Source of the DNA: Squalus acanthias
Lineage: Eukaryota
Direction: 5' to 3'
NCBI GenBank assembly: GCA_030390025.1
Contig: CM059431.1
Location: forward strand, 126,358,001-126,422,000
DNA length: 64,000 nt
The first letter of the stretch is position 1. Each line of letters opens with the position of its first letter. A model generated the notes under the pieces. It was not told where the DNA came from. It did not search any database and saw only the letters and a list, made by a program, of their open reading frames with translations. The position numbers were made by a program, and so were the translations under genes. This document shows positions 412-59,201 of the stretch, piece by piece.

Positions 412-1720
412 GGGGGGAAAATTCGGTTGCTTTGCGTCTCCCGTTAGCGCAAAGCAACTAGTGCCCGGGCGCGGCAATGTTTGCGCCGCTCACAAAATCG
501 ACCAGACATTTTGCGGCGGTGCTAAGCACTACCGCCACGATGTCCTGCGCCCGCAGATCGTGACATCAGTCGAGCGTGCAACGCCCCGGTAGCGCCCCGG
601 ACCGGATATTGAGTGGCGCCCCCTGCCTTACCACCTGCCGCTAGCAACGACAGGTTGAGGGGAGCGTTTGGCAGTCAGAATGGGACTGGGGGAGCGCTAT
701 TTAAAGGCGACCGCTTCCTACCTATTTTTGTCGTCGACATTTTTGCACCATGCATTCTGAGAGAGAGAGAGACTTCTGGAGAGATTCAACGCTGTGTGAA
801 GAAGTTTTGGGTACTGAGTATCAATTTGCAGGTTCATTTTAATTTTCCCTTCCTTGCATCGAAGTAGAAGAGACTTTTTGGGCTGCGCTCTGAGCTCTTT
901 CCCTGGGCCTCTCAATTTTTCTTTCCAGCAGAATTGATGTACAGGTCTCTCCAGGCCGAGATTCAAGGCTGCAATGAGCAGGGTGTGAATGGAGAGCAAG
1001 ATCGACCCTCCCCTTTAAGGACTGGCCGGCGCCAGTGTGTCTCTGTTCCATTGCTGACTGACATCACATGAGCTTCGCCAGCGCTCTGAGGTAGCGCCTC
1101 GCTCCTCGGCGTTAGCGCCTGTAGAATTCGCAATATATCGCGATTTTATTAATAAGGAGAAAACACAGAGTCTCGTTCAAACAGCTTTTATTTCAGCAGA
1201 ATACTGCCAGGTTTTTTCAAAGTGGACACAAGCAGCCTGTAAAATGGCCGCCGCACCTCGTGACAGAACATTCTAGACTTTTCGACAGGCAGACAAGATG
1301 GCGTTCCAATAAACATTTGTGCAAGATCGATTAAGATTCAGCACAGTGAAGATAATACACGAGACATTATGGGTTTACAGTATACACATAAATACTGAAA
1401 TCGGTCTCCCAGGTACGAATGAAAGCTATTGTACCGAGTAATCAGGGGCCCATCCAAAAGACATTAATATGTAAAATCCCAACGACTCTACGATGAGAGA
1501 GCCGTTAGCAGGTAGTTATACAAAACACTTGGAAGCCCCAAAACCCCTCCAGGGAGAACACCGACCGATTTAACAATGGGAGAAATATTAACAGGTACTC
1601 AGACATTTACGAGTAGCCCCGAAACCCATTAAGAACGGAGATCACCCATACAAGACATTTGAGCGCCAGACCCTTACAAAAGAAAGGACATTAAGGTTGG
1701 GCGGGAAACGGAAGATTTTG

Positions 1721-1732
1721 TACTATAATTAC
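1721..1732 (+). promoter_or_regulatory. Candidate LTR TATA box (TATAAT) followed by a pyrimidine-rich initiator region
   Basis: tactataattac lies ~25-30 nt upstream of a pyrimidine-rich stretch. A tataatt motif is also present in the solo LTR (~34385). YY1-like aaaatggccgcc and aagatggcg motifs lie upstream (~1241, ~1296). Confidence 0.45.
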
Positions 1733-2514
1733 AAGCTCCAACCGTCCATCTTTCTCTTATTCTCTTATCCGATCGACTCGTAACCTCGTGGCTGCTCCTG
1801 CGTTTTGACTCGTAGTCTGGTTCCTGTTTGCCTGGTGCCTTTTTGAAAAAAGACTGTTGAACTTTCTGATCCGTTCGGATCTACCTCGTGTGGCGTAACG
1901 AAGACCTATGTTGGTAACTGGCAGCGGAACCAAAGGCCCGAGATGAGATGAGATGAGATGAGATGAGATGAGAAGAGAGGAAGACCATACTCATCGCCAC
2001 GGTCAGTAAATCCCGACCGCGCCTTGAGGTCGAATAGCCAAGTTTTCCTTGCCAGGAAGACTTCTTTGAACTTGCAAGAACGGTTCATCATCGATGATAT
2101 TGACTGAGCTGTGAAACCTGCTCGGAAAAGTACCTGTTAAACCAACCAACACAGATCTTCATCACAGCAGACGGTCCAGCCTGCTAGCCGGAGCAGAAGC
2201 AAGTAAACAAGTGGGACCAGGAGATCTCCTGACCGACACGTGGGTGCTGCGGTGAAAAACATCCGATCAGCTATTCGGAATTTCTCCGAGTTATCACGAG
2301 TGGTGAGCATGAGTCTCGAAATCCTACGAATCTAGTTAGGACAGATATTGATAGGGGAGGGTTTAAGTATTAAGGATACTTGTAATGTGTGCCCCTATTT
2401 ACGGTGTGTCGTTCGTTCCTCGTTTCCCTAGGATCAGCTATATAACTGCTTGTAAGATTGTACTGTCATTAATCTGTGCTTATGACATGTATTTCATAAT
2501 CTTAAATATCATGC

Positions 2515-2520
2515 AATAAA
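2515..2520 (+). terminator. LTR polyadenylation signal AATAAA (functional copy expected at 10212-10217)
   Basis: AATAAA late in the LTR; the solo LTR has one in a comparable context at 35276-35281. Confidence 0.55.
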
Positions 2521-2773
2521 GATTTTCCATTTCGTACCATTCAACCGAGTCTACATGAGTTTCATCTCCATTACTGCTCTCGCATCTAAGTCCAGTGTCT
2601 AGAACCGTAAGGGCGAGTGATTCGAACCACTCACAGGTGTGTCTAGTGCTCCCAGACTGGCTGGAGACCAGAACAGGCAACAAGGCCTAAACCCGCACTG
2701 ACATACAGGCTGCACAGAGCCGCGTGAATCTCACAGGCTGCGAGACACGCAGGGTCAGAATCCCTTACAGAAA

Positions 2774-4582
2774 ATGGTGACCGCGGCAGGACACTGGCAG
2801 CGAGAGGGTAGTGTGTTAGACTTTGGAATGACTGTACGAAATGTTATGCAGGAAAAGATAGCAGATTATGTGTTCGGAAAGGTTAATCTAACTAAGAAAT
2901 GGATAAGTGAATTGTTAGCGGATAAAAGCCCGCTAGAGGCAGCCGAAAGGTGGACAGATAGTAAAGAACATATAAAGACACTCGAGAAAGCAGTCTGGCT
3001 TATGTGTTACAAAAGGCAGGTTCAGATTTCAAACCAGACCATTACAGCGCTAGTAGCTCGAATCAGTCATTTAGAGGGAGAAATGGATGAGAAGGTTTCT
3101 GGAGGGGAAATGCTCATTAGGAATTTAAGTGCGTTGCACCAAGAACGCCAGGAAATCTCCAGTCACCATAAAACAAGGATAGATTATCTCGAGTGCCAGG
3201 TCACTGAGGCAAAGTTAAATGAGAGCAGGTTAAAGGAAAGATGTGCCCGCCAAGCTGCCCAGATAAGAACTCAGGAAGAGAGCTTAACGGGGGTTAGGGC
3301 GGCATATAAGTTGGCCCTTGAGGATAAGTTTCAGGGAGCCGATCATAGCGCCTGCCAAAAAGAGATAGAGCACCTCAAAAAGGCCGTGAACAAAGCGCAC
3401 GGCATGGTGTGCCTTATCAGTCCGTCAGCACACCAGCCGCTAGTAAGTGAGAAGTTTAAGAAATCCCCACCAAGTAAAGCAGAGGAAGTAGTAGCCACTG
3501 CGCCCTCCGCGCCACCCAGCTATTCGGAAACCTGGGTTAGGGAGGAAGCAATGGAAGAAACGAAAGAGCCCATTGAGAAAGAAGTGGAAAAGGGACCGTT
3601 GTATCCAGTAACGGGTATTAAAAGGGGCCCAAACAGAAACGGTGGGGAAGAACCAGGGGATCTCCTCGGACAGCTTGTGTTGCCTCACAGCTCACACCAG
3701 CTGAGAGCTATGATAAATCACGTACGGAAGCTGACCGAGTCAGACGACCCTTCCGTACATTTCAGAGAAGTTGAGCAAGCCGCAGCCATTAACGGCTGCG
3801 ATGATGGGGAAACAGCAAAAATGCTGCTGTTCTCATTAGACAGCTCGGTCCTTCAGTGTCTCTCAGGCGAGAGCAAGAGGGGAACCAAGACTTATGAGGC
3901 ATTAAAGAATGAGGTCCTGGAAGTGTTGGGGGCGAACGATGAAGGTCCGTTTGCTAGAGTGGGACAGACAGTGCAGATGGAGGGAGAACCCCCGAAGGTT
4001 TTTGCCGACAGGCTGTGGCCAGTATATGAGCGCAGCTGTCTAGGTGCGCCCGAACGCGAAGATGTGGAAGGCGCCGGTTTAGCTCATTGGCTTAGGTGCA
4101 TAATAGCCAACAGTTTACCAGCCGTCAGAGAGCAGGCAAAAGCATGGTTTGATCCCAATGACCCCAACATTACGGAAGAGTCGGTCTTGAATCGACTCAC
4201 GTTAGGATATCGCAATATAAGGGGTATGGCAACACGTCCCCTTAAGGGAAAAGTACATGAGGTACGACCCGCAGCCCCGTATCAAAGAGAGTGGCATCAG
4301 GAGGGTAATCGCGCCCCACAGGCAAGTAATGCTTGTTACGGGTGTGGGAAGACAGGGCACTGGCGCAAGCATTGCAGGAACCCTTGGAAAGATTCCAAGG
4401 ATAAAAATCCCGCGGTCCGAGCCCAGGCGCCTGTCCCGGCTAGGGAAGCTAATGCACCCACCCCTCCCGACGACCTCGAAGTAGTGTTAGGAGCCATGCG
4501 CAGTTTATTGAGTGCACATGGAAAGGTGGCGGTTGCAACCGGCCCCGTAGGTGCCGCAGGACCGTCTAATAGTACCCAATGA
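2774..4582 (+). CDS. gag: Gag polyprotein (coiled coil, late domains, capsid-like region, CCHC zinc knuckle)
   Basis: 602-aa intact ORF. PSAPPSY at 3503-3523; capsid-like QMEGEPPKVFADRLW; CYGCGKTGHWRKHC at 4334-4375. The true start could be a downstream Met. Confidence 0.92.
   Translation: MVTAAGHWQREGSVLDFGMTVRNVMQEKIADYVFGKVNLTKKWISELLADKSPLEAAERWTDSKEHIKTLEKAVWLMCYKRQVQISNQTITALVARISHLEGEMDEKVSGGEMLIRNLSALHQERQEISSHHKTRIDYLECQVTEAKLNESRLKERCARQAAQIRTQEESLTGVRAAYKLALEDKFQGADHSACQKEIEHLKKAVNKAHGMVCLISPSAHQPLVSEKFKKSPPSKAEEVVATAPSAPPSYSETWVREEAMEETKEPIEKEVEKGPLYPVTGIKRGPNRNGGEEPGDLLGQLVLPHSSHQLRAMINHVRKLTESDDPSVHFREVEQAAAINGCDDGETAKMLLFSLDSSVLQCLSGESKRGTKTYEALKNEVLEVLGANDEGPFARVGQTVQMEGEPPKVFADRLWPVYERSCLGAPEREDVEGAGLAHWLRCIIANSLPAVREQAKAWFDPNDPNITEESVLNRLTLGYRNIRGMATRPLKGKVHEVRPAAPYQREWHQEGNRAPQASNACYGCGKTGHWRKHCRNPWKDSKDKNPAVRAQAPVPAREANAPTPPDDLEVVLGAMRSLLSAHGKVAVATGPVGAAGPSNSTQ
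2775..2791 (+). promoter_or_regulatory. Primer-binding site (tRNA identity ambiguous: Trp/Leu/Ser-like)
   Basis: TGGTGACCGCGGCAGGA starts 5 nt after the 5' LTR; TGG complements the tRNA CCA end. Confidence 0.6.
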
Positions 4583-5728
4583 CTAGAGCCCACGCAGCCT
4601 GCCTACCTGTGTCCTTTTAAAAGACACGCACAGGAGGGGGTCTGCGGTGAGGAGGCCAGGTTAAAAGAGCAGGCCTTGCGGGAGGAGAACGCCCGCTTAA
4701 TAGGGAAAATAGATGGGCTGGAAGGGCAGCTTAGAGAGCAGGCCCTGCGGGAGGAGAACGCCCGATCAATGGGAAAGTTAGACGTGCTCAGGCTAGAAGC
4801 GCAGCTTAGAGAGATAAAAGCAGCCTGCAGGGTAGCCAAAAGCCGGGAGTATGAGGATGTAAACCAATGCAAACTGTACAAGCCAGGTGCGCAAGGGAAA
4901 ACCACAGGGGTAAACCCCGCCAGTGGGGAAGCACAGCCCCAGGTAGGACCACAAGGCACACAGGCAGGCAAAGCAGCTTGCATCAGGGGAGGGGACATCC
5001 TGGAAGATCATGAAGCATTTTTCTGGGGTTGGGAGTCAGATGAGGGAGAATTCCGGGAACTCGAGTCAGATGAGGATAGTGATGAAGACGAGTGGTTTTG
5101 GAGGAACGGTCCCGTTTTAGATATAGGGAGAATACGGGCTGCAGATAGAGATCTACACAGGGTGGACACACAAGCTGCAGGTCCCGAGGACAGGAGGGAG
5201 GAGCTAGGGGAGGCGGGGCCAGCCGCTGTGGGAGCACAGGGAGTGACGGTGAGGACCCCAGAGACAGAGCCCTCCGCTTTGAACGTCCCGTCCTCGGGGG
5301 AGGCAGAGATCACGAGTGAAGGGCCGCCTGCTGGGCCGAGCAGGGCGGAGCCACAAACTGCGAGCCCCGAGGTTAGGGAGGCGGAGTCAGCGGAGGCGGA
5401 GCCACCGACTGTGGTGGAACCCCAGGTCGTCCCGATGGAAGTCTCGGAACCCGGTCCGTCAGTCACGGAACCACCGCCCATGGCAACTCCCCGTAGGTCA
5501 AGTAGAGAACCCCAGCCCAGGAGGATGTGGTCATGTCCCCAGACTGCCCCAAGGCGTAGACTTAAGGTTAAGGCAACCCAGATACAGCCCGGCCCCATCG
5601 CAGCAGCAACAGGCTGCGGCAGATCAGAGGAAGGAATCAGTGCAGCAACAGGCTGCGGCAGATCAAAGGGAAGGGTCAGTGCCCTCCCACCGTCGGGAAG
5701 AGCTCGCAGCAGCCTTCTCAGAATTTAA
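4583..5728 (+). CDS. In-frame post-gag ORF (probable Gag readthrough extension); coiled-coil + acidic + Pro/Glu-rich; occupies the pol position
   Basis: After gag TGA the frame stays open (CTA GAG CCC ... TTG CGG GAG GAG at 4676 ...) until TAA at 5726-5728. No DTG/DSG protease, YxDD RT or HHCC/DDE integrase motifs. Confidence 0.7.
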   Translation, partial: LEPTQPAYLCPFKRHAQEGVCGEEARLKEQALREENARLIGKIDGLEGQLREQALREENARSMGKLDVLRLEAQLREIKAACRVAKSREYEDVNQCKLYKPGAQGKTTGVNPASGEAQPQVGPQGTQAGKAACIRGGDILEDHEAFFWGWESDEGEFRELESDEDSDEDEWFWRNGPVLDIGRIRAADRDLHRVDTQAAGPEDRREELGEAGPAAVGAQGVTVRTPETEPSALNVPSSGEAEITSEGPPAGPSRAEPQTASPEVREAESAEAEPPTVVEPQVVPMEVSEPGPSVTEPPPMATPRRSSREPQPRRMWSCPQTAPRRRLKVKATQIQPGPIAAATGCGRSEEGISAATGCGRSKGRVSALPPSGRARSSLLRI

Positions 5729-6017
5729 AGGGGCCGCCCTGAGAACGGGCGGCACTGTATAGTAATAAGTTTTAAGTTTTAAGTTCATAGTTCAAGGTTA
5801 AGTTTATAGTTTTAAATCAGGTTAAGTTTGTAGTTTAATTCTAACAGAAAACGGTAAAATGATGGGAGCTTTAGAGATAGGTTTAGTTAAAATTTATTCA
5901 GCGAACGTTGAAGTTTACGTGAGGCGAGGTCAGGGGACCCGCTCACCCTTCACAGAAGCCAGAGACTCTTGCGAGGCTGGCTACCTCATTCTATCTGATC
6001 ACAGGAACCAAGGAAGG

Positions 6018-8365
6018 ATGGAACGAATTCTAGTATTGCTCGCGGCAATCGGATGTGGATTGGCCTATCGAGGCCGCACCAAGGATGTCGTGGTGTTTGG
6101 ATGTTCCGGGGACACGGCCCCCATCGCGGTGGATGGGACCGGAAGACGGGAGGCAGAGGAGACCAGCACCTATTTCCACAAGGGAAGGTGGCCAGGATGG
6201 CTGGGAACGAACTCAACGGAGTATTCTAGCACATCGGGGTTTGCCTACAAAGAGACTTCTTTAATGTGCCCCAAAGTAAGGATCATCGCACCCAGGATCA
6301 GCGTCACCGTCGGCAAATGGATTTGTTTGACTTGTAGTGGGAATGTCCCATTGAGCCGATGGTGGTGGCTGCGAAAGCTGAGCAAAACTATGAGGAACTC
6401 TTCGGTCGAGTGGGAACGACTGGGTAATAATACCCATCGGACAATTACGGGGACAAACGGACAAGTGAAAGTCTGTTGGGACAAATGGTGGGAACCGGAC
6501 GAGGGAATTTATGTATGTATGTGGGGGTCAAAGTACGTTTGCCCCAAAGGCATCTCCATATTTTTCATTAATCAATGGCAGGATAACGGACAGGGGATGA
6601 GGTGGGATGCGAGCACCAGGGGGTGCGGAGCCCCATTCTCCCCGATCCCAGTAAATGCCACTGAGCTCATTACGCGCCCACGCAAAGCCCCGCCCACAAT
6701 TCCGGTGGTTCTAGCTGAGGAAGAAGGGTGCCCTAAAACTAGTAAGGGACCCGGGAATGGTTTGGTACTGGTCCCCACAGACCAGATACTATTTCAGGGG
6801 GTACATTACGCGGTGGCCTCGGTGATTTTAAATCTCACCGAGGTGCGGTTACCAGAGTGGTGCCCCAAAAAGACGGAACAGTTGTATCAGGTCCTGTTGA
6901 CCAAGATGTTCAGACAATTTTACGAATTCGATTTCGCGGAAATTGATAAAACAAGTTTGTACACCGCACCACAGGAAGTTTTGGATCAAGTAGGGAGGCA
7001 AAGAAGGGGTTTGGTGAACGATGCGTTCACTGCTTTTAACACGGGTACATCTGTGGTCAACGCTCTAGACAGTGTGGAGCTGCAGACCCAGATTAATGGT
7101 CTAAAAACGCAATTTAATGACATTCTAACAGATGAGAATAAAGTGGTAGGGTCGGGTCTACACGAGGACCAAGCCATGACTCTCCATTTAAAGGAAATTA
7201 TAGCAGAGTTGGAGAAACATGCAAAGACGGTAAATGCCCTGATTAGGGAAGATCGGAATGCATCCAATCAAGCTGCGCAGAACGAGGTATGCTTTACGGG
7301 GCGTGGTTACTGGGCGAGGGCCGCAGTAATTTGGAGGATTTAAAACAAGGTTTGGTCCCGTCCTGGATAAGTAACAAACACCTGCGGGCGCTCCACCCTT
7401 TTCAGAACGCATTAAGTCCGTGCCAGCTCAGGCTAGCTTCAGAAGCTTACCCAGTCCCCGTGGACTGCGGACGATCAAACCATACTATTATGGGAATAGT
7501 ATTACACATGCCGGTTTTGGGCGACACAGCAAAGCCCGCCCCGGTGTATCGGGTAGAGAACATTGGTGTCATTCAGGGGGGAGCCCACATTCGTTATGCA
7601 GCGGTTCCACCTTACGTCATCCGCTGGGAGCAAACGATGACAGGTACAGATCTCTCTGGTTGTCGTGGCAGGGGAGCACACATAATACTGTGCCCCCAGC
7701 ACTTGAATGCCTTTTTAACACCACAGTGCGGGTTCAGAACGACTGGCGCCAAGTCCATGAATTGCACCATGGAGGCAATGGCACAAGATCATGTGCCTCC
7801 GCAGGTAGCATACATCGGGGGTGGAACATATTGTGTTACCACTGCAGCGCAACACTACCAGCATGGAAACCGTAGCCGGTGTCCGGTGAGTGACAGCAGT
7901 TTCTGTTTTAAACCCAGGGCGGAAGTTCAAGTAGCACAACAGCGAATCATCCCAATCCCTGAACCATCCACTGTTCATCTCACAGTAAAAGAGAATTTCA
8001 CCGACTTGCAGCGATTCGTCGCGCATTTCGGATACCTCATTCCCCCTCTCCCTGAACACCTCACCAAGCTTTTAAAAGCCGTCGCGGTATCACAGAAACA
8101 TTTTTACACATTAGAACAGAAAACTGTCGAAATAGGAACAGACATTGTGGATATAGTAATTCCACCGTGGTGGAATCTGTTCACCAATATTGAAGTGCCT
8201 TCATGGATCAGAATAGCCTCCCACATTTTAGTCGTATGTCAAGTGTTTATTGTAGTGTACCTATTGGTCGTACATTGTAAAAGAGACAAACGCCTCACCA
8301 AGCATGAAAACACGGGAGAATGGCGAGAACGTTACGTGCGCGTGCACGAAGAAAGCACCGTGTAA
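6018..8365 (+). CDS. env: Envelope glycoprotein: signal peptide, Ig-like domain, furin-cleaved class I fusion protein, TM, short tail; one -1 frameshift between 7247 and 7343
   Basis: MERILVLLAAIGCGLA signal peptide; LTC...W...DEGIYVC Ig signature; RQRR|GLVNDAFTAFNTGTSVVNAL then heptads; Cys-rich region and TM (WIRIASHILVVCQVFIVVYLLVVHC) in ORF 7289-8365; ~782 aa if rejoined. Confidence 0.85.
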
Positions 8366-8805
8366 TCGGATAATGGCGTCATTCCCGCTCGCCACGTGCG
8401 CCGCGGAAGTTTGTACTCGATCATGATTTTCAAAGATTGTAAATACGTTTGGGAACTCGACATGTTTTAAGAGTTGGTGTTGATTATTTTGGTGATGGTG
8501 TTACAGTTAAAAATGATTGTTTGGTTTTGGGTTTGTTTTTCCTCTCCCTGAATAAAAGATGAATATACAGGTGATACGAGAGGCATCGGCCTGGTTACGC
8601 CGGGAAGGAAAACAAGTGGTGTAAGTTTAAGGGCAAATAAAGGCCCACGGTGATATAAAATGTAATTTTCTTGGGAAATAAGGACGACACATAGACCCTA
8701 GCTAGGTTAAAATTATGGGATTAATTTGCTGGATTCGGAGAGAAATCGAGATAATATTGCTCACCACTATGATTTTTGATACGATAAGCGGAGTTATTCG
8801 CATCA

Positions 8806-8816
8806 ACGGGAGGGAC
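8806..8816 (+). promoter_or_regulatory. Polypurine tract
   Basis: acgggagggac immediately before the TG of the 3' LTR. Confidence 0.7.
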
Positions 8817-10466
8817 TGTAGAATTCGCAATATATCGCGATTTTATTAATAAGGAGAAAACACAGAGTCTCGTTCAAACAGCTTTTATTTCAGCAGAATA
8901 CTGCCAGGTTTTTTCAAAGTGGACACAAGCAGCCTGTAAAATGGCCGCCGCACCTCGTGACAGAACATTCTAGACTTTTCGACAGGCAGACAAGATGGCG
9001 TTCCAATAAACATTTGTGCAAGATCGATTAAGATTCAGCACAGTGAAGATAATACACGAGACATTATGGGTTTACAGTATACACATAAATACTGAAATCG
9101 GTCTCCCAGGTACGAATGAAAGCTATTGTACCGAGTAATCAGGGGCCCATCCAAAAGACATTAATATGTAAAATCCCAACGACTCTACGATGAGAGAGCC
9201 GTTAGCAGGTAGTTATACAAAACACTTGGAAGCCCCAAAACCCCTCCAGGGAGAACACCGACCGATTTAACAATGGGAGAAATATTAACAGGTACTCAGA
9301 CATTTACGAGTAGCCCCGAAACCCATTAAGAACGGAGATCACCCATACAAGACATTTGAGCGCCAGACCCTAACAAAAGAAAGGACATTAAGGTTGGGCG
9401 GGAAACGGAAGATTTTGTACTATAATTACAAGCTCCAACCGTCCATCTTTCTCTTATTCTCTTATCCGATCGACTCGTAACCTCGTGGCTGCTCCTGCGT
9501 TTTGACTCGTAGTCTGGTTCCTGTTTGCCTGGTGCCTTTTTGAAAAAAGACTGTTGAACTTTCTGATCCGTTCGGATCTACCTCGTGTGGCGTAACGAAG
9601 ACCTATGTTGGTAACTGGCAGCGGAACCAAAGGCCCGAGATGAGATGAGATGAGATGAGATGAGATGAGAAGAGAGGAAGACCATACTCATCGCCACGGT
9701 CAGTAAATCCCGACCGCGCCTTGAGGTCGAATAGCCAAGTTTTCCTTGCCAGGAAGACTTCTTTGAACTTGCAAGAACGGTTCATCATCGATGATATTGA
9801 CTGAGCTGTGAAACCTGCTCGGAAAAGTACCTGTTAAACCAACCAACACAGATCTTCATCACAGCAGACGGTCCAGCCTGCTAGCCGGAGCAGAAGCAAG
9901 TAAACAAGTGGGACCAGGAGATCTCCTGACCGACACGTGGGTGCTGCGGTGAAAAACATCCGATCAGCTATTCGGAATTTCTCCGAGTTATCACGAGTGG
10001 TGAGCATGAGTCTCGAAATCCTACGAATCTAGTTAGGACAGATATTGATAGGGGAGGGTTTAAGTATTAAGGATACTTGTAATGTGTGCCCCTATTTACG
10101 GTGTGTCGTTCGTTCCTCGTTTCCCTAGGATCAGCTATATAACTGCTTGTAAGATTGTACTGTCATTAATCTGTGCTTATGACATGTATTTCATAATCTT
10201 AAATATCATGCAATAAAGATTTTCCATTTCGTACCATTCAACCGAGTCTACATGAGTTTCATCTCCATTACTGCTCTCGCATCTAAGTCCAGTGTCTAGA
10301 ACCGTAAGGGCGAGTGATTCGAACCACTCACAGGTGTGTCTAGTGCTCCCAGACTGGCTGGAGACCAGAACAGGCAACAAGGCCTAAACCCGCACTGACA
10401 TACAGGCTGCACAGAGCCGCGTGAATCTCACAGGCTGCGAGACACGCAGGGTCAGAATCCCTTACA
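8817..10466 (+). repeat. 3' LTR
   Basis: Copy of 1120-2769; the only difference I spotted is T1675 vs A9372. Confidence 0.97.
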
Positions 10467-11051
10467 CGCCTTAAGAGAGGTGTGTAGTGCCTGATTTAGC
10501 GCTGCAATCACCTCCAGGGGTGATAGAAGCCAAGTTTGCAGTCGGAGGCTAAACTTTGCGCCCAACCGATAATTGCGTCCCAAACGGGGCGATACCGAAT
10601 TTCCCCCCCTTTCTTTCTTATTACCAGTATAGATTTGTAGATGTCACAATCCATAGGTTAATGATCAGCACAAATAGTGATTGAAACCCAACAGGCAGAA
10701 TGTGTATATGTGTATAATTAATTAACACCCACCACTTTGACCAGTATAAACTTTATAGAGCTTGGGAAATGCATGCACTGGAATTAACCTAGCTTCAGTC
10801 CAAGGTTTTTGAAAAATTTGCCTACTACAGGGATTTTGGAAATTTTTGCACAATGGTTAGCCACTTGAGATGGCTGAGTGAGAGGCAGATATTTTTATGT
10901 CATTGTGCTGGTGACATTGTATGTATGGTGATTGCTAGTGAAGACAGGAAACCCTGTTGTGTCTAAGATGTTGCTAACATAGAATGACCAGAGGACCCAT
11001 TCCACAGAACTCTAAATGTCCAATAATTTTAAATAAAGAGAACACCCTGTA

Positions 11052-30800: not shown

Positions 30801-31439
30801 CCAGTGTTGGGGCGTACGCACTGATGACCGTAGCGCACAGGTTCTGGGCTAGGCTGAGCCGTAGAGTCATGAGTAGTTCGTTTATTCCACAAGGGGAGTC
30901 TCTGAGACGTTCAACTAGCTCATTTTTTATGGCGAAGCCTACCCCATGGAGGCGGCGTTCTTCTTCAGGCTTGCCTTTCCAGAAGAAGGTGTAGCCACCG
31001 CCTTGCTCTTGAGCTGGCCTTCCCCTGCCCGGCGGGTCATGCTTAGGGCAGCGATGTCTATGTCGAAATGTCTGAGCTCCCGGGCAATGATAGCAGTACA
31101 GCGTTCTGGTCTGTCGCTGTTGGGATTGTCCATGAGGGTCCTGACGTTCCAGGTCCCGAATTTCATTTTAAAGGGTGGAAGATGCCTGTGTGTGAATTCT
31201 TTTAACGTGCGGTGGCCGTTGCACACCAGCTACCACACGGGCTTGACAGAGCAAGATCTTGGTCCAATGGCAAGGGGATCCAAGACGATTGGAGACCAGG
31301 CTCTGCGACATCGGCCTAGCACACACACACAAACATACTCCTACTGTCCTCCTCCTTCCTTCCCGCAGGTCCTCTCTGCCTGGGTTTCATAGGCTGCAGT
31401 GTGGTCCTCCCGACCTCGCTGCTGGTCCATGCTGTGCCA

Positions 31440-32460
31440 CTCCTGGGCCTCGACGTCGCTGCTGGGCTCGTCCTTTCTCCTGGGCCTCGTCCTCGCTCCT
31501 GGGTCCCGACCTTGCTCCTGGGCCTCGACCTCGCTCCTGGGCCCCGTCCTCGCTCCTGGGCCTCGTCCTCGCTCCTGGGCCTCGACCTCGCCCCTGGGTT
31601 CCATCCTCTCCCCTGGGCCTCGTCCTCGCTCCTGGGCCTCATCCTCGCTCCTGGGCCCCTTCCTCGCTCCTTGGCCCCATCCTCGCTCCTGGGCCTCGTC
31701 CTCGTCCCTGGGTTCCGTCTTTGCCCCAGCGTCCCATCCTCGCTCCTGGGCCTCGTCCTCGCTCCTGGGCCTCATCCTCGCCCCTGGGCCTCATCCTCGC
31801 CCCTGGGTCCCATCATCGCTCCTGGGCCTCGTCCTCACTCCTGGATCCCGTTCTCGCCCCTGGTTCCCGTCCTCATCCCTGGGCCCCGTCCTCGCCCCTG
31901 GGCCCCGACATCGCTCCTGGGCCCCGTCCTCGCCCCTGGGCCCCGACATCGCCCCTGGGTCCCGTCCTCGCCCCTGGGCCCCGTCATCGCCCCTGGGCCC
32001 CGACATCGCTCCTGGGCCCCGTCCTCGCCCCTGGGCCCCGTCCTCGCCCCTGGGCCTCGTCCTCGCCCCTGGGTCCCGACCTCGCTCCTGGGCCTCGACC
32101 TCACACCTGGGTCCCGACCTCGCTCCTGAGCCTCAACCTCACTCCTGGGCCCCGTCCTCGCTCCTGGGCCCTGTCCTTGTCCCTGGGTCCCGACCTCGCT
32201 CCTGGGCTCGACCTCACTCCTGGGCCCCGTCCTCATCCCTGGGTCCCGACCTCAGTCCTGGGCCTCGACCTCACTCCTGGGCCCCGTCCTCATCCCTGGG
32301 CCTCGACCTTGCTCCTGGGCCTTGACCTCACTCCTGGGCCTCGACCTCACTCCTGGGCCCCGTCCTCGCCCCTGGGTCCCGTCCTCATCCCTGGGTCCCG
32401 ACCTCGCTCCTGGGACTCGAACTCGCTCCTGGGCCTTGAACTCGCTCCTGGGTACCGACC
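31440..32460. repeat. GC-rich VNTR, ~19-bp unit (cctcgctcctgggcctcgt-like), ~50 copies
   Basis: Direct inspection; produces spurious long ORFs in all frames. Confidence 0.92.
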
Positions 32461-33720
32461 TCCTTATAGCGTGTCTCCTTCTAGTGATTGTGTCCCGCGG
32501 TGTCTCCTTCCAGTGAGTGTGCAACGCGGTGTCTCCTTCTACTGAGTGTGCTTGTTTTACTCTGCTTGAGTGACTGAAATGGCTGCTGGTGTACATTATT
32601 AGAGTGCCACTTGCACATCTGCACTATTGCATGTGCATGCCACATTTCCATGAAATGTCGAAACCATGCCTTTACTCCCCCACAGGGACCATCCACAGAG
32701 CCCCCCCACCCACTGTCGATGAGGAAGAGGCTGAGCAGCAAGACTCCTCAGGGGAACCTGCAACCTCTGAGGATGCAGTGTCAGCAGATGTAAGCGCACC
32801 CAGCACCAGCGCAGATATGCACACCTCGGTGGGATGTTCGGGACATAGAGTAGTGTTGTCACCGTGTGTATCACATCTCACAGGTGAGCATCAGCAGGTG
32901 GTGGAGACAGGGACAGCAGTGAAGAGTCCTCGGCGGAGGTCACAGGACTCTCAGCTCTGCTCAGCTGCATGTGGACCCTGTGCCTTTGGGTCCATCCAGG
33001 AGAGCGGCGCTGGAACTCCAGGAGCAGATGCAGGAATCTCTGGCAGGTTTTGTCTTCAGGGTCACTGCGAGTGTGGAGAGGATGGAGGAGTCCATCTCTA
33101 ACATGAGCAGTGCCTTTGTGGAGGCAATGGCGCATGAACGCACCACCATGGAAAGGATGGCAACCTCTGTGGAAAGGATGGCTACCTCTGTGGTAACGAT
33201 GGCTACCTCTCTGGAAAGGGTGGCTACGGTAGAGGAGAGGATGGCTATGGCCATGGAGGACCTAAGTCGCCAGAGTCTGAAAAACATGGTGAATGCTCAG
33301 AATAGACTGACATCTCTGGAGGAGCGATGGGCAGCTATTGAGCAGATAAACCAGAGCTTCATGGAAGTCCTTCTGAGTAGGACTGCCAGTGCAGATACAG
33401 GTCCCCATGGCCCCCTGATGTGCAGCAAGGTGCTCTGAAGCCACATGCTAGCACTGAAGTGGGGCTGACCCATGAGAGAGAAGTTGGTGGCAGAGAATAA
33501 GGAAGTGGGGGCTCCTCTCCAAGCGCTCACACTTCCATGCAACTGTGTAGCCCTCGGTCAGAGCCCCACCAAAGTCCGCACCCAACTGAGATGGGCCATC
33601 TCAGCCCCTGTAACTGCCGCAGGATGAGCAGATATTTGGCGAGCACTCACAGGCTCAGAAACCCAGAGGACGCCCGCCAAAGGTGTCGAAGCAGGAGCAG
33701 CATGAAAGTGAGCGAGGGGC

Positions 33721-57687: not shown

Positions 57688-58254
57688 GGGGGAGAAATTT
57701 GGTACCTTAGCGCCTCCAGTTACTGCCTGGCAGGGGCACTAACAGGGTGCTGAGGCAGTAACGCCACGGCGAGGCGAATCCAGCGATGCACGCCAAATCC
57801 GGCACCTCTGTCGCGCCGCCGTTACAAGTTAGCGCCGGGGACTTCAGCGCCAGGCAGATCGTGATGTCAGTGAGCGTGCAGCGCTCACTGGGCACCCTAT
57901 CTGCGAAATTGATTATCGCCCCCTGCCTTAGCGCCTCGCCTCAACAGCGACAGGGAGAGGAGGCGTGAAGCCGTCGGTAGCCGTCTCCAGGGGCGCTACT
58001 TAAAGGGATCCTGAGTAATGAGTCGCAGCTCTCAGGTTAGTGATGTTTCACTGCTTCCTTGTCGGTTTGACATTGTGCAACAGTTCAAATCAGTCATTTA
58101 AGGTTGTTTAGTCCCCGGAGTGTTGTGGCTACTAAAAATTAGTTACATTTATTCTCACAACTGTTAGAAACTAAAGATGCCTAAAAATGTATATGGTTAT
58201 GTGATTAAAACTCTGACGTGAAAAATGCTGTGTTTAAATGGTTATGTTCGAATT

Positions 58255-58640
58255 GCAGATGGAAGAGAAAGAGAGAGCGAGCGAGCTTGTACTCACAGAC
58301 GGAGGAGAAAGAGAGAGAGAGCGAGCTTGTACTCACAGACGGAGGAGAAAGAGAGAGCGAGCGAGCTTGTACTCACAGACGGAGGAGAAAGAGAGCGAGA
58401 GCGAGCTTGTACTTACAGACGGAGGAGAAAGAGAGAGAGAGCGAGCTTGTACTCACAGACGGAGGAGAAAGAGAGAGAGAGCGAGCTTGTACTCACAGAC
58501 GGAGGAGAAAGAGAGAGAGAGCTTGTACTCACAGATGGAAGAGAAAGAGAGAGAGAGAGAGAGCTTGTACTCACAGATGGAAGAGAAAGAGAGAGAGAGA
58601 GAGCTTATACTCACAGATGGAAGAGAGAGAGAAAGAGAAG
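58255..58640. repeat. Minisatellite, ~40-bp unit (gagcttgtactcacagacggaggagaaagagaga...), ~9 copies
   Basis: Direct inspection. Confidence 0.92.
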
Positions 58641-59201
58641 GAGGCTCTAGACGAAAGGAAGAAGAGAATTGCTCACGTGTGTCAACCATCTGACCGATCG
58701 GATCGGTATCAGCTTCTTGCCACAGTCGTATGTTTTTGCTGTATAACTAATGTGTTATATTCCGTATTAAACTCTGATTAAACAAAGACACAAAAGTTTT
58801 AAATGAAGTCTTATATAAGTTAAGAGTTTTAAAAATAAATTTTTAAAAACGGGTTTTGACCATTTGGAGTAGTATAGCAACTGTGGGTGTGTACAAGGCA
58901 TATTTAGGTATCTATCTGTGAAAATGAAAGTTTAAAAATGAACTGTTTACGTTTCAAAAAGTTTTAAAGATGAAAATGAGTAAGTAAGTAAGTATGTATG
59001 TATGTATGTATGAATTTATGAAAATGTTACAGTTTTGGAAAATCAGCTAGGGCCGTGTGGCGGGTAGATGTGTTCCCAAGCTGATAGCGCACGTATCCCA
59101 CCATAGCCTGACCTGATTTTATAGCCACTCACTTAACTAAAGTTACTTTAACAACTATTTCCATTTCTTCATTAAACTTTCAGTTTGAGGAGGAAGCCTG
59201 T

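Follow-up and report, generated by a model that had tools for sequence, protein, structure and literature searches.

An endogenous retrovirus (ERV) in which gag is followed by a long open frame, and by none of the usual enzymes, raises the question of what that frame is and why it has stayed open. Such an element spans positions 1120-10466 of the 64,000-nt stretch of contig CM059431.1 analysed here (the window, whose own numbering is used throughout). Its gag ends in CAA TGA CTA G (4577-4586), and direct reading of this junction bears out the preliminary description of the locus: past the stop, 381 codons stay open up to a TAA at 5726-5728, and the product of readthrough would have 984 aa. Beyond reasonable doubt, the element is a non-autonomous form of a provirus with the order long terminal repeat (LTR)-gag-pol-env, in which a 244-nt coiled-coil segment has taken the place, in frame, of about 3.6 kb of pol covering the protease, reverse transcriptase (RT), RNase H and integrase.

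The extension had been taken for a non-enzymatic open reading frame (ORF) standing in the place of Pol. It is non-enzymatic, as no enzyme domain is found in it with Pfam, but about 300 of its 381 codons are pol itself, with the protease-RT-RNase H-integrase part replaced in frame. Since most of the ORF is the tail of Pol, the finding is less exotic than this first reading. The feature is real, and non-autonomous ERVs with a retained pol-derived frame are already known as a kind. Defective ERVs that match or outcompete their helpers are known, while the retention of a pol-derived frame has been explained solely for the mouse element IAP 1-delta-1. The features on which the argument depends are the following.

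2774-4582, plus strand: gag, 602 aa, with a long N-terminal helix (about aa 69-215), a helical capsid-like region and a CCHC knuckle
4580-4586, plus strand: TGA CTAG, the gag stop in a leaky context, identical in the pol-bearing long copies
4583-4614, plus strand: first 32 nt of pol (Pol aa 1-11); 20/20 long copies match up to 4614 and then diverge
4615-4858, plus strand: 244-nt replacement segment, coiled-coil, with 69-nt and 75-nt repeat units; not in long copies
4859-5728, plus strand: last 870 nt of pol (Pol aa 1218-1506), comprising the end of the integrase SH3-like fold and a non-enzymatic Pol tail, in frame

The frame downstream of the gag stop

The identity of the extension was established by comparison with long copies of the same element, namely the first 20 among 73 Gag matches whose match stopped one residue before that of the window. 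All 20 carry TGA CTAG before pol, which makes it the Gag-Pol junction of this element; 18 rejoin the window sequence at 4859, and in 8 of them pol is open to its end. The Pol of one long copy (1,506 aa) consists of a protease, an RT, an RNase H-like tether, an RNase H, an integrase and an SH3-like end, beyond which lies a tail of 289 residues nearly identical to residues 93-381 of the window extension. In the window frame, Pol aa 1-11 are thus joined to Pol aa 1218-1506 through an 81-codon replacement, whose 3' breakpoint cuts the integrase fold in its final motif.

In a frog and two further sources, related Pols stop shortly past the last integrase motif, while an independent Pol fragment, P0057, has a homologous tail (34% identity over 276 columns) in which the motifs GKxACxRGG, RRSxxxPQP and AATGCG recur. 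These comparisons indicate that the tail is a lineage-specific Pol extension which was already non-enzymatic before the deletion. The acidic Trp-rich patch and the Pro/Glu-rich tail, both noted before as characters of the extension, are present, but they are ordinary Pol parts of the same element and not foreign material. The duplicated EQALREENAR repeat, also reported at the outset, lies in the replacement segment, where it opens a 69-nt unit at 4666-4734 and a 75-nt unit at 4735-4809. A foreign accessory gene, considered as the source of the ORF, was ruled out by its 300 pol codons.

Database searches with the extension returned little: one match, restricted to the tail, among 1.84 billion proteins with phmmer; a single weak coiled-coil match, below the cut-off, with Pfam; and a best score of 0.81, at chance level, in ESM Atlas. 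The frame is open beyond what chance would give, as the other two plus-strand frames of the tail hold 7-18 stops per 290 codons in ten open copies. A different in-frame internal loss in pol was observed in the long copy L018, whose product of 1,295 aa has a normal end.

Copies of the short and long forms

Copies were counted as motif matches in the genome with at most one mismatch unless stated otherwise, and reversed-pattern controls gave 0 matches. The long form is represented by 1,489 integrase-tail junctions. For the short form, 1,081 5' junctions were counted, together with 308 3' junctions of the window type and 422 of a variant type (at most two mismatches). A TGA stands directly before the exact short-form head in 815 of 818 cases (three control bases are kept in 810 of 818), which implies that no sizeable short lineage has lost the stop. 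Among the parsed loci, TGA CTAG is present in 78 of 79 and TGA CTGG in the remaining one. At least two gag lineages carry the short-form cassette. Contigs from 4 of 14 listed sequencing runs, which belong to four studies and four organism labels and of which two are guessed to be RNA, span the junction of the short form at 4614, and this indicates presence only.

Several variants deserve mention. One short copy (G000 C2:83663991) has lost the stop and has a 949-aa frame across the junction. L078, L083 and L091 belong to a short-form type that is more diverged and ends gag differently, and L078 combines TGA CTGG with a single repeat unit. In the type represented by L070 (the 422 motif matches) the junction is 33 nt longer, and the extra peptide AGAVACLKGG resembles the tail motif AGKAACIRGG and, loosely, the Gag sequence GMVCL. 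Copies were also found about 7.7, 10.4 or 11.5 kb apart at G000 C1:143.65-143.67 Mb, C264 and C3465; this regular spacing suggests tandem arrays with common LTRs, some of them perhaps mixtures of short and long forms.

The putative readthrough signal

In alphaviruses, readthrough at UGA-CUA is stimulated by a long stem-loop on the 3' side and was raised by deletion of the loop (PMC3159437). The long copies resemble this cassette in having UGA-CUA and a stem-loop of about 220 nt a few nt past the stop (pol nt 5-221 after the gag stop in L010). The 230 nt past the stop are predicted to fold as a rod of -98 kcal/mol (z -5.4), and none of 100 shuffles was as stable; of 18 other pol windows, one was equally stable (-5.5, near pol nt 2761) and another reached -4.2. 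The rod is accordingly described here as a candidate readthrough stimulator. That the long form is read through is a strong inference, because its pol follows in frame and lacks any separate start codon upstream of the protease. The system differs from that of alphaviruses in its location at a retroviral gag-pol junction and in the short form, which lacks the long loop and has at most a compact hairpin.

The replacement segment removes the loop and the 3' arm of the long-form rod. A CCUGUG/CACAGG helix with an unchanged 5' position is predicted for the long form and for three of four short types, and in the window it belongs to the following feature.

4589-4654, plus strand: predicted compact hairpin 3' of the stop, pairing CCUGUG (4606-4611) with CACAGG (4629-4634); not significant against shuffles

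Readthrough of the short form is plausible.

It may be asked whether the extension could instead be expressed independently as an accessory protein, from the TTG at 4676 (the start given by the ORF track, as previously noted), from an internal ATG or from a spliced RNA, which would make readthrough irrelevant. Possible starts exist, namely this TTG and in-frame ATGs at aa 63, 285, 300 and 315. Yet the 31 codons before the TTG are open too in nearly all copies, the junction is the leaky context found before pol in long copies, and the ATG at aa 63 is variable (T in L058), so that this explanation is regarded as highly improbable.

The same stop context occurs outside this genome. In the supplement of PMC7947760, the gag genes of Loki-Ofa and Loki-Pyo end in TGA CTAG, as checked here against the ends of the Gag proteins, and that of Loki-Bsp ends in TGA CTG G; a further TGACTAG, probably from Loki-Cne, looks like a gag end. 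The terms readthrough, suppress and frameshift do not occur in the main text of that article by a term search, and the retroviral readthrough contexts given in the available part of PMC13517186 (UAG, UGAAGA, UGACGA and UGAAGU) do not include UGACUA. A side result of this work is that UGA-CUAG with a long stem-loop is pointed to as the Gag-Pol signal of loki-like retroviruses; no statement to this effect was found in the literature searched.

Conservation of the frame among copies

Sixty short copies were read: the window and the other best DNA matches (8 in all), 20 copies selected for insert identity, 20 found with the 3' motif and 12 with the 5' motif alone. L049 was obtained without the stop and was left out (its frame is open over 398 codons, counted from the head motif), so that 59 remained. 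The ORF is kept open in most copies, as 51 of the 59 are open to the usual end (3 of these as far as the fetched stretch reaches). Frequent stops or frameshifts in other copies, which had been named as evidence against a retained frame, were not found: the 8 breaks in the 59 copies are private, fall in 8 distinct places and consist of four stops, two 1-nt shifts, one duplication and one foreign insertion. Substitutions common to at least two of the 51 open copies number 268, and none of them creates a stop, while 10-12 would be expected (P 4e-6 to 3e-5).

Length variation points in the same direction. Indels common to several copies net to multiples of 3, and the stop-to-tail distances that are unique to the short form are all divisible by 3: 351 nt (43 copies), 342 nt (4), 384 nt (5), 339 nt (1) and 276 nt (1). 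This distance is off frame in two single copies (those with the duplication and the insertion), and 3 copies lack the anchor. One short copy carries an additional 69 nt, also in frame, and the number of repeat units in the insert (the replacement segment as found in each copy) varies from 1 to 3.

A ratio of nonsynonymous to synonymous rates (dN/dS) below 1 had also been proposed as a mark of selection on the ORF. For the tail this was not borne out, since shared changes gave 0.9-1.1; the insert points weakly to it, with 30 nonsynonymous and 19 synonymous changes (N:S; p 0.016-0.086). In more precise terms, N:S in the short-copy tails is 181:66 for shared changes (dN/dS 0.94-1.10) and 110:60 for changes in a single copy (0.63-0.74), and pairwise dN/dS is 0.58-1.10 in 21 pairs with dS up to 0.40. 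In long copies, the enzymes show 29:47 (dN/dS about 0.2) and the tails 19:7 (about 1). The Gag of seven short copies has shared changes at 17:14 and private breaks in 5 of the 7, its single-copy counts being inflated by one rearranged copy. An overlapping gene was considered as the cause of the tail dN/dS of about 1 and rejected: a 159-aa ORF in the +1 frame (5283-5762) is fragmented elsewhere, with longest runs of 43-92 aa in 7 of 10 copies.

When the same copies are compared, insert dS is 0-0.12 and tail dS is 0.05-0.40, and the window tail is about 98% identical to that of one long lineage. The greater divergence of tails than of inserts, together with the sharing of tail types with long lineages, indicates that tails have been exchanged between short and long forms. 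This exchange is in turn evidence that short and long RNAs meet during replication.

A possible role for the extension

According to these data, it is proposed that the short form is an enzyme-free mimic of Gag-Pol, made by readthrough, which would aid its own RNA in cis. This reading is the one preferred here, and it is put forward tentatively, as a possibility somewhat short of an even chance. The RNA of the short form would make Gag, and a few per cent of the ribosomes would pass UGA-CUAG, as for Gag-Pol in long copies, yielding a Gag-Pol mimic that is free of enzymes and terminates at the stop of Pol itself. The enzymes would come in trans from long copies, with which the short form would recombine; a coding helper exists in the same genome, with 1,489 long junctions and pol open in 8 of 20 long copies. 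Translation of the extension, or the nascent fusion itself, would favour the RNA in cis through its stability or its entry into particles, and selection would act mainly on the open frame and not on the amino acids. A precedent for action in cis is the gag-pol fusion of IAP 1-delta-1 (PMC6466679). Escape from nonsense-mediated decay (NMD) is one possible route of such a benefit, as readthrough under 1% can mute NMD by displacing UPF1, a mechanism for which viral use is described as not known (PMC9661723).

A number of observations weigh against this proposal. L091, read from 70-nt pieces only, falls short of the length of its sister type by 29 nt, a difference not divisible by 3. The insert alone shows no significant deficit of stops (0 of 21, with about 1 expected), and 247 of the 268 shared substitutions sit in the tail. 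The commonest short-form tail type follows the integrase in 997 long junctions; as tail types are common to long lineages, the missing stops may have been earned by Pol and have reached the short form through recombination. The hairpin predicted in the short form lacks significance (z -0.3 to -1.5, and -2.4 solely in a 118-nt window). The NMD version in particular is weakened because readthrough would cut the distance to the poly(A) signal merely from about 5.6 to 4.5 kb, and these 4.5 kb would still be untranslated.

Several of these points fit a passive remnant, that is, a chance in-frame join in a young family whose tail is refreshed from long copies, whose stop was inherited with gag and whose fusion is inert. 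Such a history would agree with a tail dN/dS of about 1 in both short and long copies, with tail types common to long lineages, with inserts far less divergent than the tails of the same copies (a mark of tail swapping) and with LTRs that differ at 1 of 1,650 nt, and gains or losses of repeat units are in frame by construction. It accounts less well for the variants that are exclusive to the short form: the original join, a -9 variant (4 of 12 sampled copies), the +33 segment (422 matches) and the units of 69 and 75 nt are all in frame, each with a chance of about 1 in 3, and the insert shows mild purifying selection (p 0.016-0.086). Taking both sides together, the passive remnant is judged rather unlikely.

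Origin of the replacement segment

The DNA of the 244-nt segment matches neither the long element nor the rest of the window, and the translation of the segment has no match in three protein libraries. A derivation from pol or from the element's own gag DNA was rejected, with no DNA match and 48 of 300 shuffles scoring as well, and so was the possibility that its start is an inverted copy of the pol head (152 of 2,000 shuffles; 12 of 534 element windows). Among six candidate loci read as 70-nt pieces, no donor element was found, all being short-form copies; most of the approximately 1,000 copies lie outside this reading.

At the protein level, the insert bears a weak likeness to the final part of the long Gag helix (Gag aa 145-187), up to the conserved AAY[KR] motif. 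The alignment of a one-unit insert with Gag is gapless, with 13 of 43 residues identical, and scores 12.6 bits on a profile of three Gags, a value reached by 0 of 500 heptad-preserving decoys; blastp of the insert to a related Gag gave E=1e-4. The insert of the window itself scores 3.3 bits (6 of 500 decoys as high) and has no match to the skate Gag, and reversed controls against P0059 are nearly equal to the real comparisons (58-63 vs 62-80). These high reversed scores mean that convergence between coiled coils is possible. The chances that the insert was captured from a diverged gag are thus put at about even, on these protein comparisons. A predicted complex of the insert with the Gag coiled coil had a score of 0.00, which is uninformative either way.

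If the segment is indeed a second Gag-like coiled coil, the fusion might function as a sequence-specific Gag-X protein that joins this coiled coil to the Pol-tail motifs, co-assembles with helper Gag and replaces or recruits helper Gag-Pol. The likeness of the one-unit insert to Gag aa 145-187, above all 500 decoys, the recurrence of the tail motifs in an independent Pol tail and the N:S of 30:19 in the insert would agree with such a protein. It is difficult to reconcile with the tail amino acids, which drift at a dN/dS of about 1, and with a repeat number that varies from 1 to 3, and the 3.3 bits of the window insert, the unmatched skate Gag and the reversed controls detract from the likeness itself. 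Overall, this explanation, which comes nearest to the role suggested in the preliminary description, is considered unlikely. A more elaborate scheme, which is doubtful to a greater degree, would have the pol of a satellite rebuilt as an enzyme-free decoy: the readthrough ratio of the helper would dose a Gag fusion, made of the Pol tail plus a second, captured Gag coiled coil, which would occupy Gag-Pol places in shared particles, and the cassette, passed between several lineages of gag and tail, would have risen to about 1,000 copies.

Relationship to lokiretroviruses and other known systems

The element is loki-like, with a putative F-type Env, and its membership is unproven. Their gag, 1,506-aa pol and env-like frame beside the LTR give the long copies the architecture of lokiretroviruses, while the window copy has this architecture without the enzymes. 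A dual RNase H is present (RT_RNaseH at aa 497-602 and RNase_H at aa 650-793). In language-model features the Env of a long copy is like a paramyxovirus-type F, its top match in ESM Atlas being 'Fusion glycoprotein F0' (PF00523 88%, score 0.93, 207/256 features), and a basic RQRR cleavage site is present; Pfam does not report PF00523 at E<=10, the fold model is unusable (pLDDT 33.6), and no Env homologs were found among longer proteins. For Gag, the best named relative is the skate Gag (52%), and a low-confidence model (pLDDT 48) has the capsids of MLV, HIV and dArc in its top Foldseek rows, the best being MLV CA at E=0.048.

In free RT trees, the element groups with a frog Pol and another sequence, nearer to an epsilon/gamma-like set, and the loki-like P0009 falls outside. 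P0009 was labelled loki-like by eye from the supplement of PMC7947760, and the tree contains no named reference; 47 of 52 sequences passed the coverage filter, and later trees were built on a chosen subset of 25-27. A forced loki clade is not rejected for RT (p-AU 0.29, in a quick LG+G4 tree) or for integrase (p-AU 0.54). The integrase tree groups the element with P0009 and P0007 (SH-aLRT 89), and the best named match of the integrase is 'NYNRIN-like' at 42%, an automatic name.

Compared with the lokiretroviruses described in PMC7947760, the likeness extends to the LTR-gag-pol-env order, the tether plus RNase H, an apparently F-like Env and a coiled-coil N-terminus of Gag. The differences are a host that is probably a cartilaginous fish (one chondrichthyan row of that supplement lists three genomes, 0 positive), an RT placed apart from the sole loki-like reference in the free tree, and a Pol with a 289-aa tail.

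Two non-autonomous elements provide further parallels. IAP 1-delta-1 of the mouse is a very successful deletion form with an in-frame gag-pol-derived ORF that needs helper enzymes (PMC6466679). Its deletion takes part of gag and pol and leaves one fused ORF (PMC6466679), whereas the present element has a complete gag with its stop, retains env and would make its fusion, bridged by a new coiled-coil segment, as a minor product of readthrough. Judged by the same marks, the enzymes are lost and a gag-pol-derived frame is kept, but the join lies behind a retained stop. BHIKHARI (Bik-1) of zebrafish is also recently active, loki-related and pol-less, with an intact coiled-coil Gag and a need for complementation in trans (PMC12067270). 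It consists of a single Gag ORF and has no identified helper, in contrast with the readthrough frame, the env and the abundant helper found here. A literature search from which most subscription papers were absent found neither this element nor any ERV without pol that retains a readthrough frame.

The in-frame replacement, the retained stop and the large copy number make the element testable. As a single genome offers about 1,000 short-form and 1,500 long-form junctions, selection on the frame, selection on the protein and recombination become statistically separable, and the family constitutes a natural test of whether retroviral readthrough matters beyond the production of enzymes, a question left open in PMC9661723.

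Other features of the provirus and the window

The remaining parts of the window copy are listed below.

1116-1119, no strand: target-site duplication CGCC, with its second copy at 10467-10470
1120-2769, plus strand: 5' LTR, 1,650 nt, TG...CA, differing from the 3' LTR at 1 base
2775-2792, plus strand: primer-binding site overlapping the gag ATG, recognized from sequence
6018-8365, plus strand: env-like gene with a putative F-type ectodomain, in two broken frames in the window copy that overlap at 7247-7343
8817-10466, plus strand: 3' LTR, with AATAAA at 10212-10217

The single base that differs between the two 1,650-nt LTRs indicates a very recent insertion. The primer-binding site at 2775-2792 is one which we take to be complementary to tRNA-Arg, and the window contains 0 tRNA genes. 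The N-terminal part of env (6018-6700) contains an Ig-like motif, DEGIYVC, for which Pfam gives Ig_3 merely at E=0.47 (env of a long copy). A candidate splice acceptor was noted in 5985-6020, with a pyrimidine-rich run and a CAG at 6004, 14 nt upstream of the likely env ATG (6018). Within the unusually long LTR of 1.65 kb there is a (GAGAT)n microsatellite, at 1943-1972 and 9640-9669. Outside the provirus, tandem arrays with units of 19 nt and 40 nt occupy 31350-32500 and 58216-58693, and the window is otherwise filled by many dispersed repeats.

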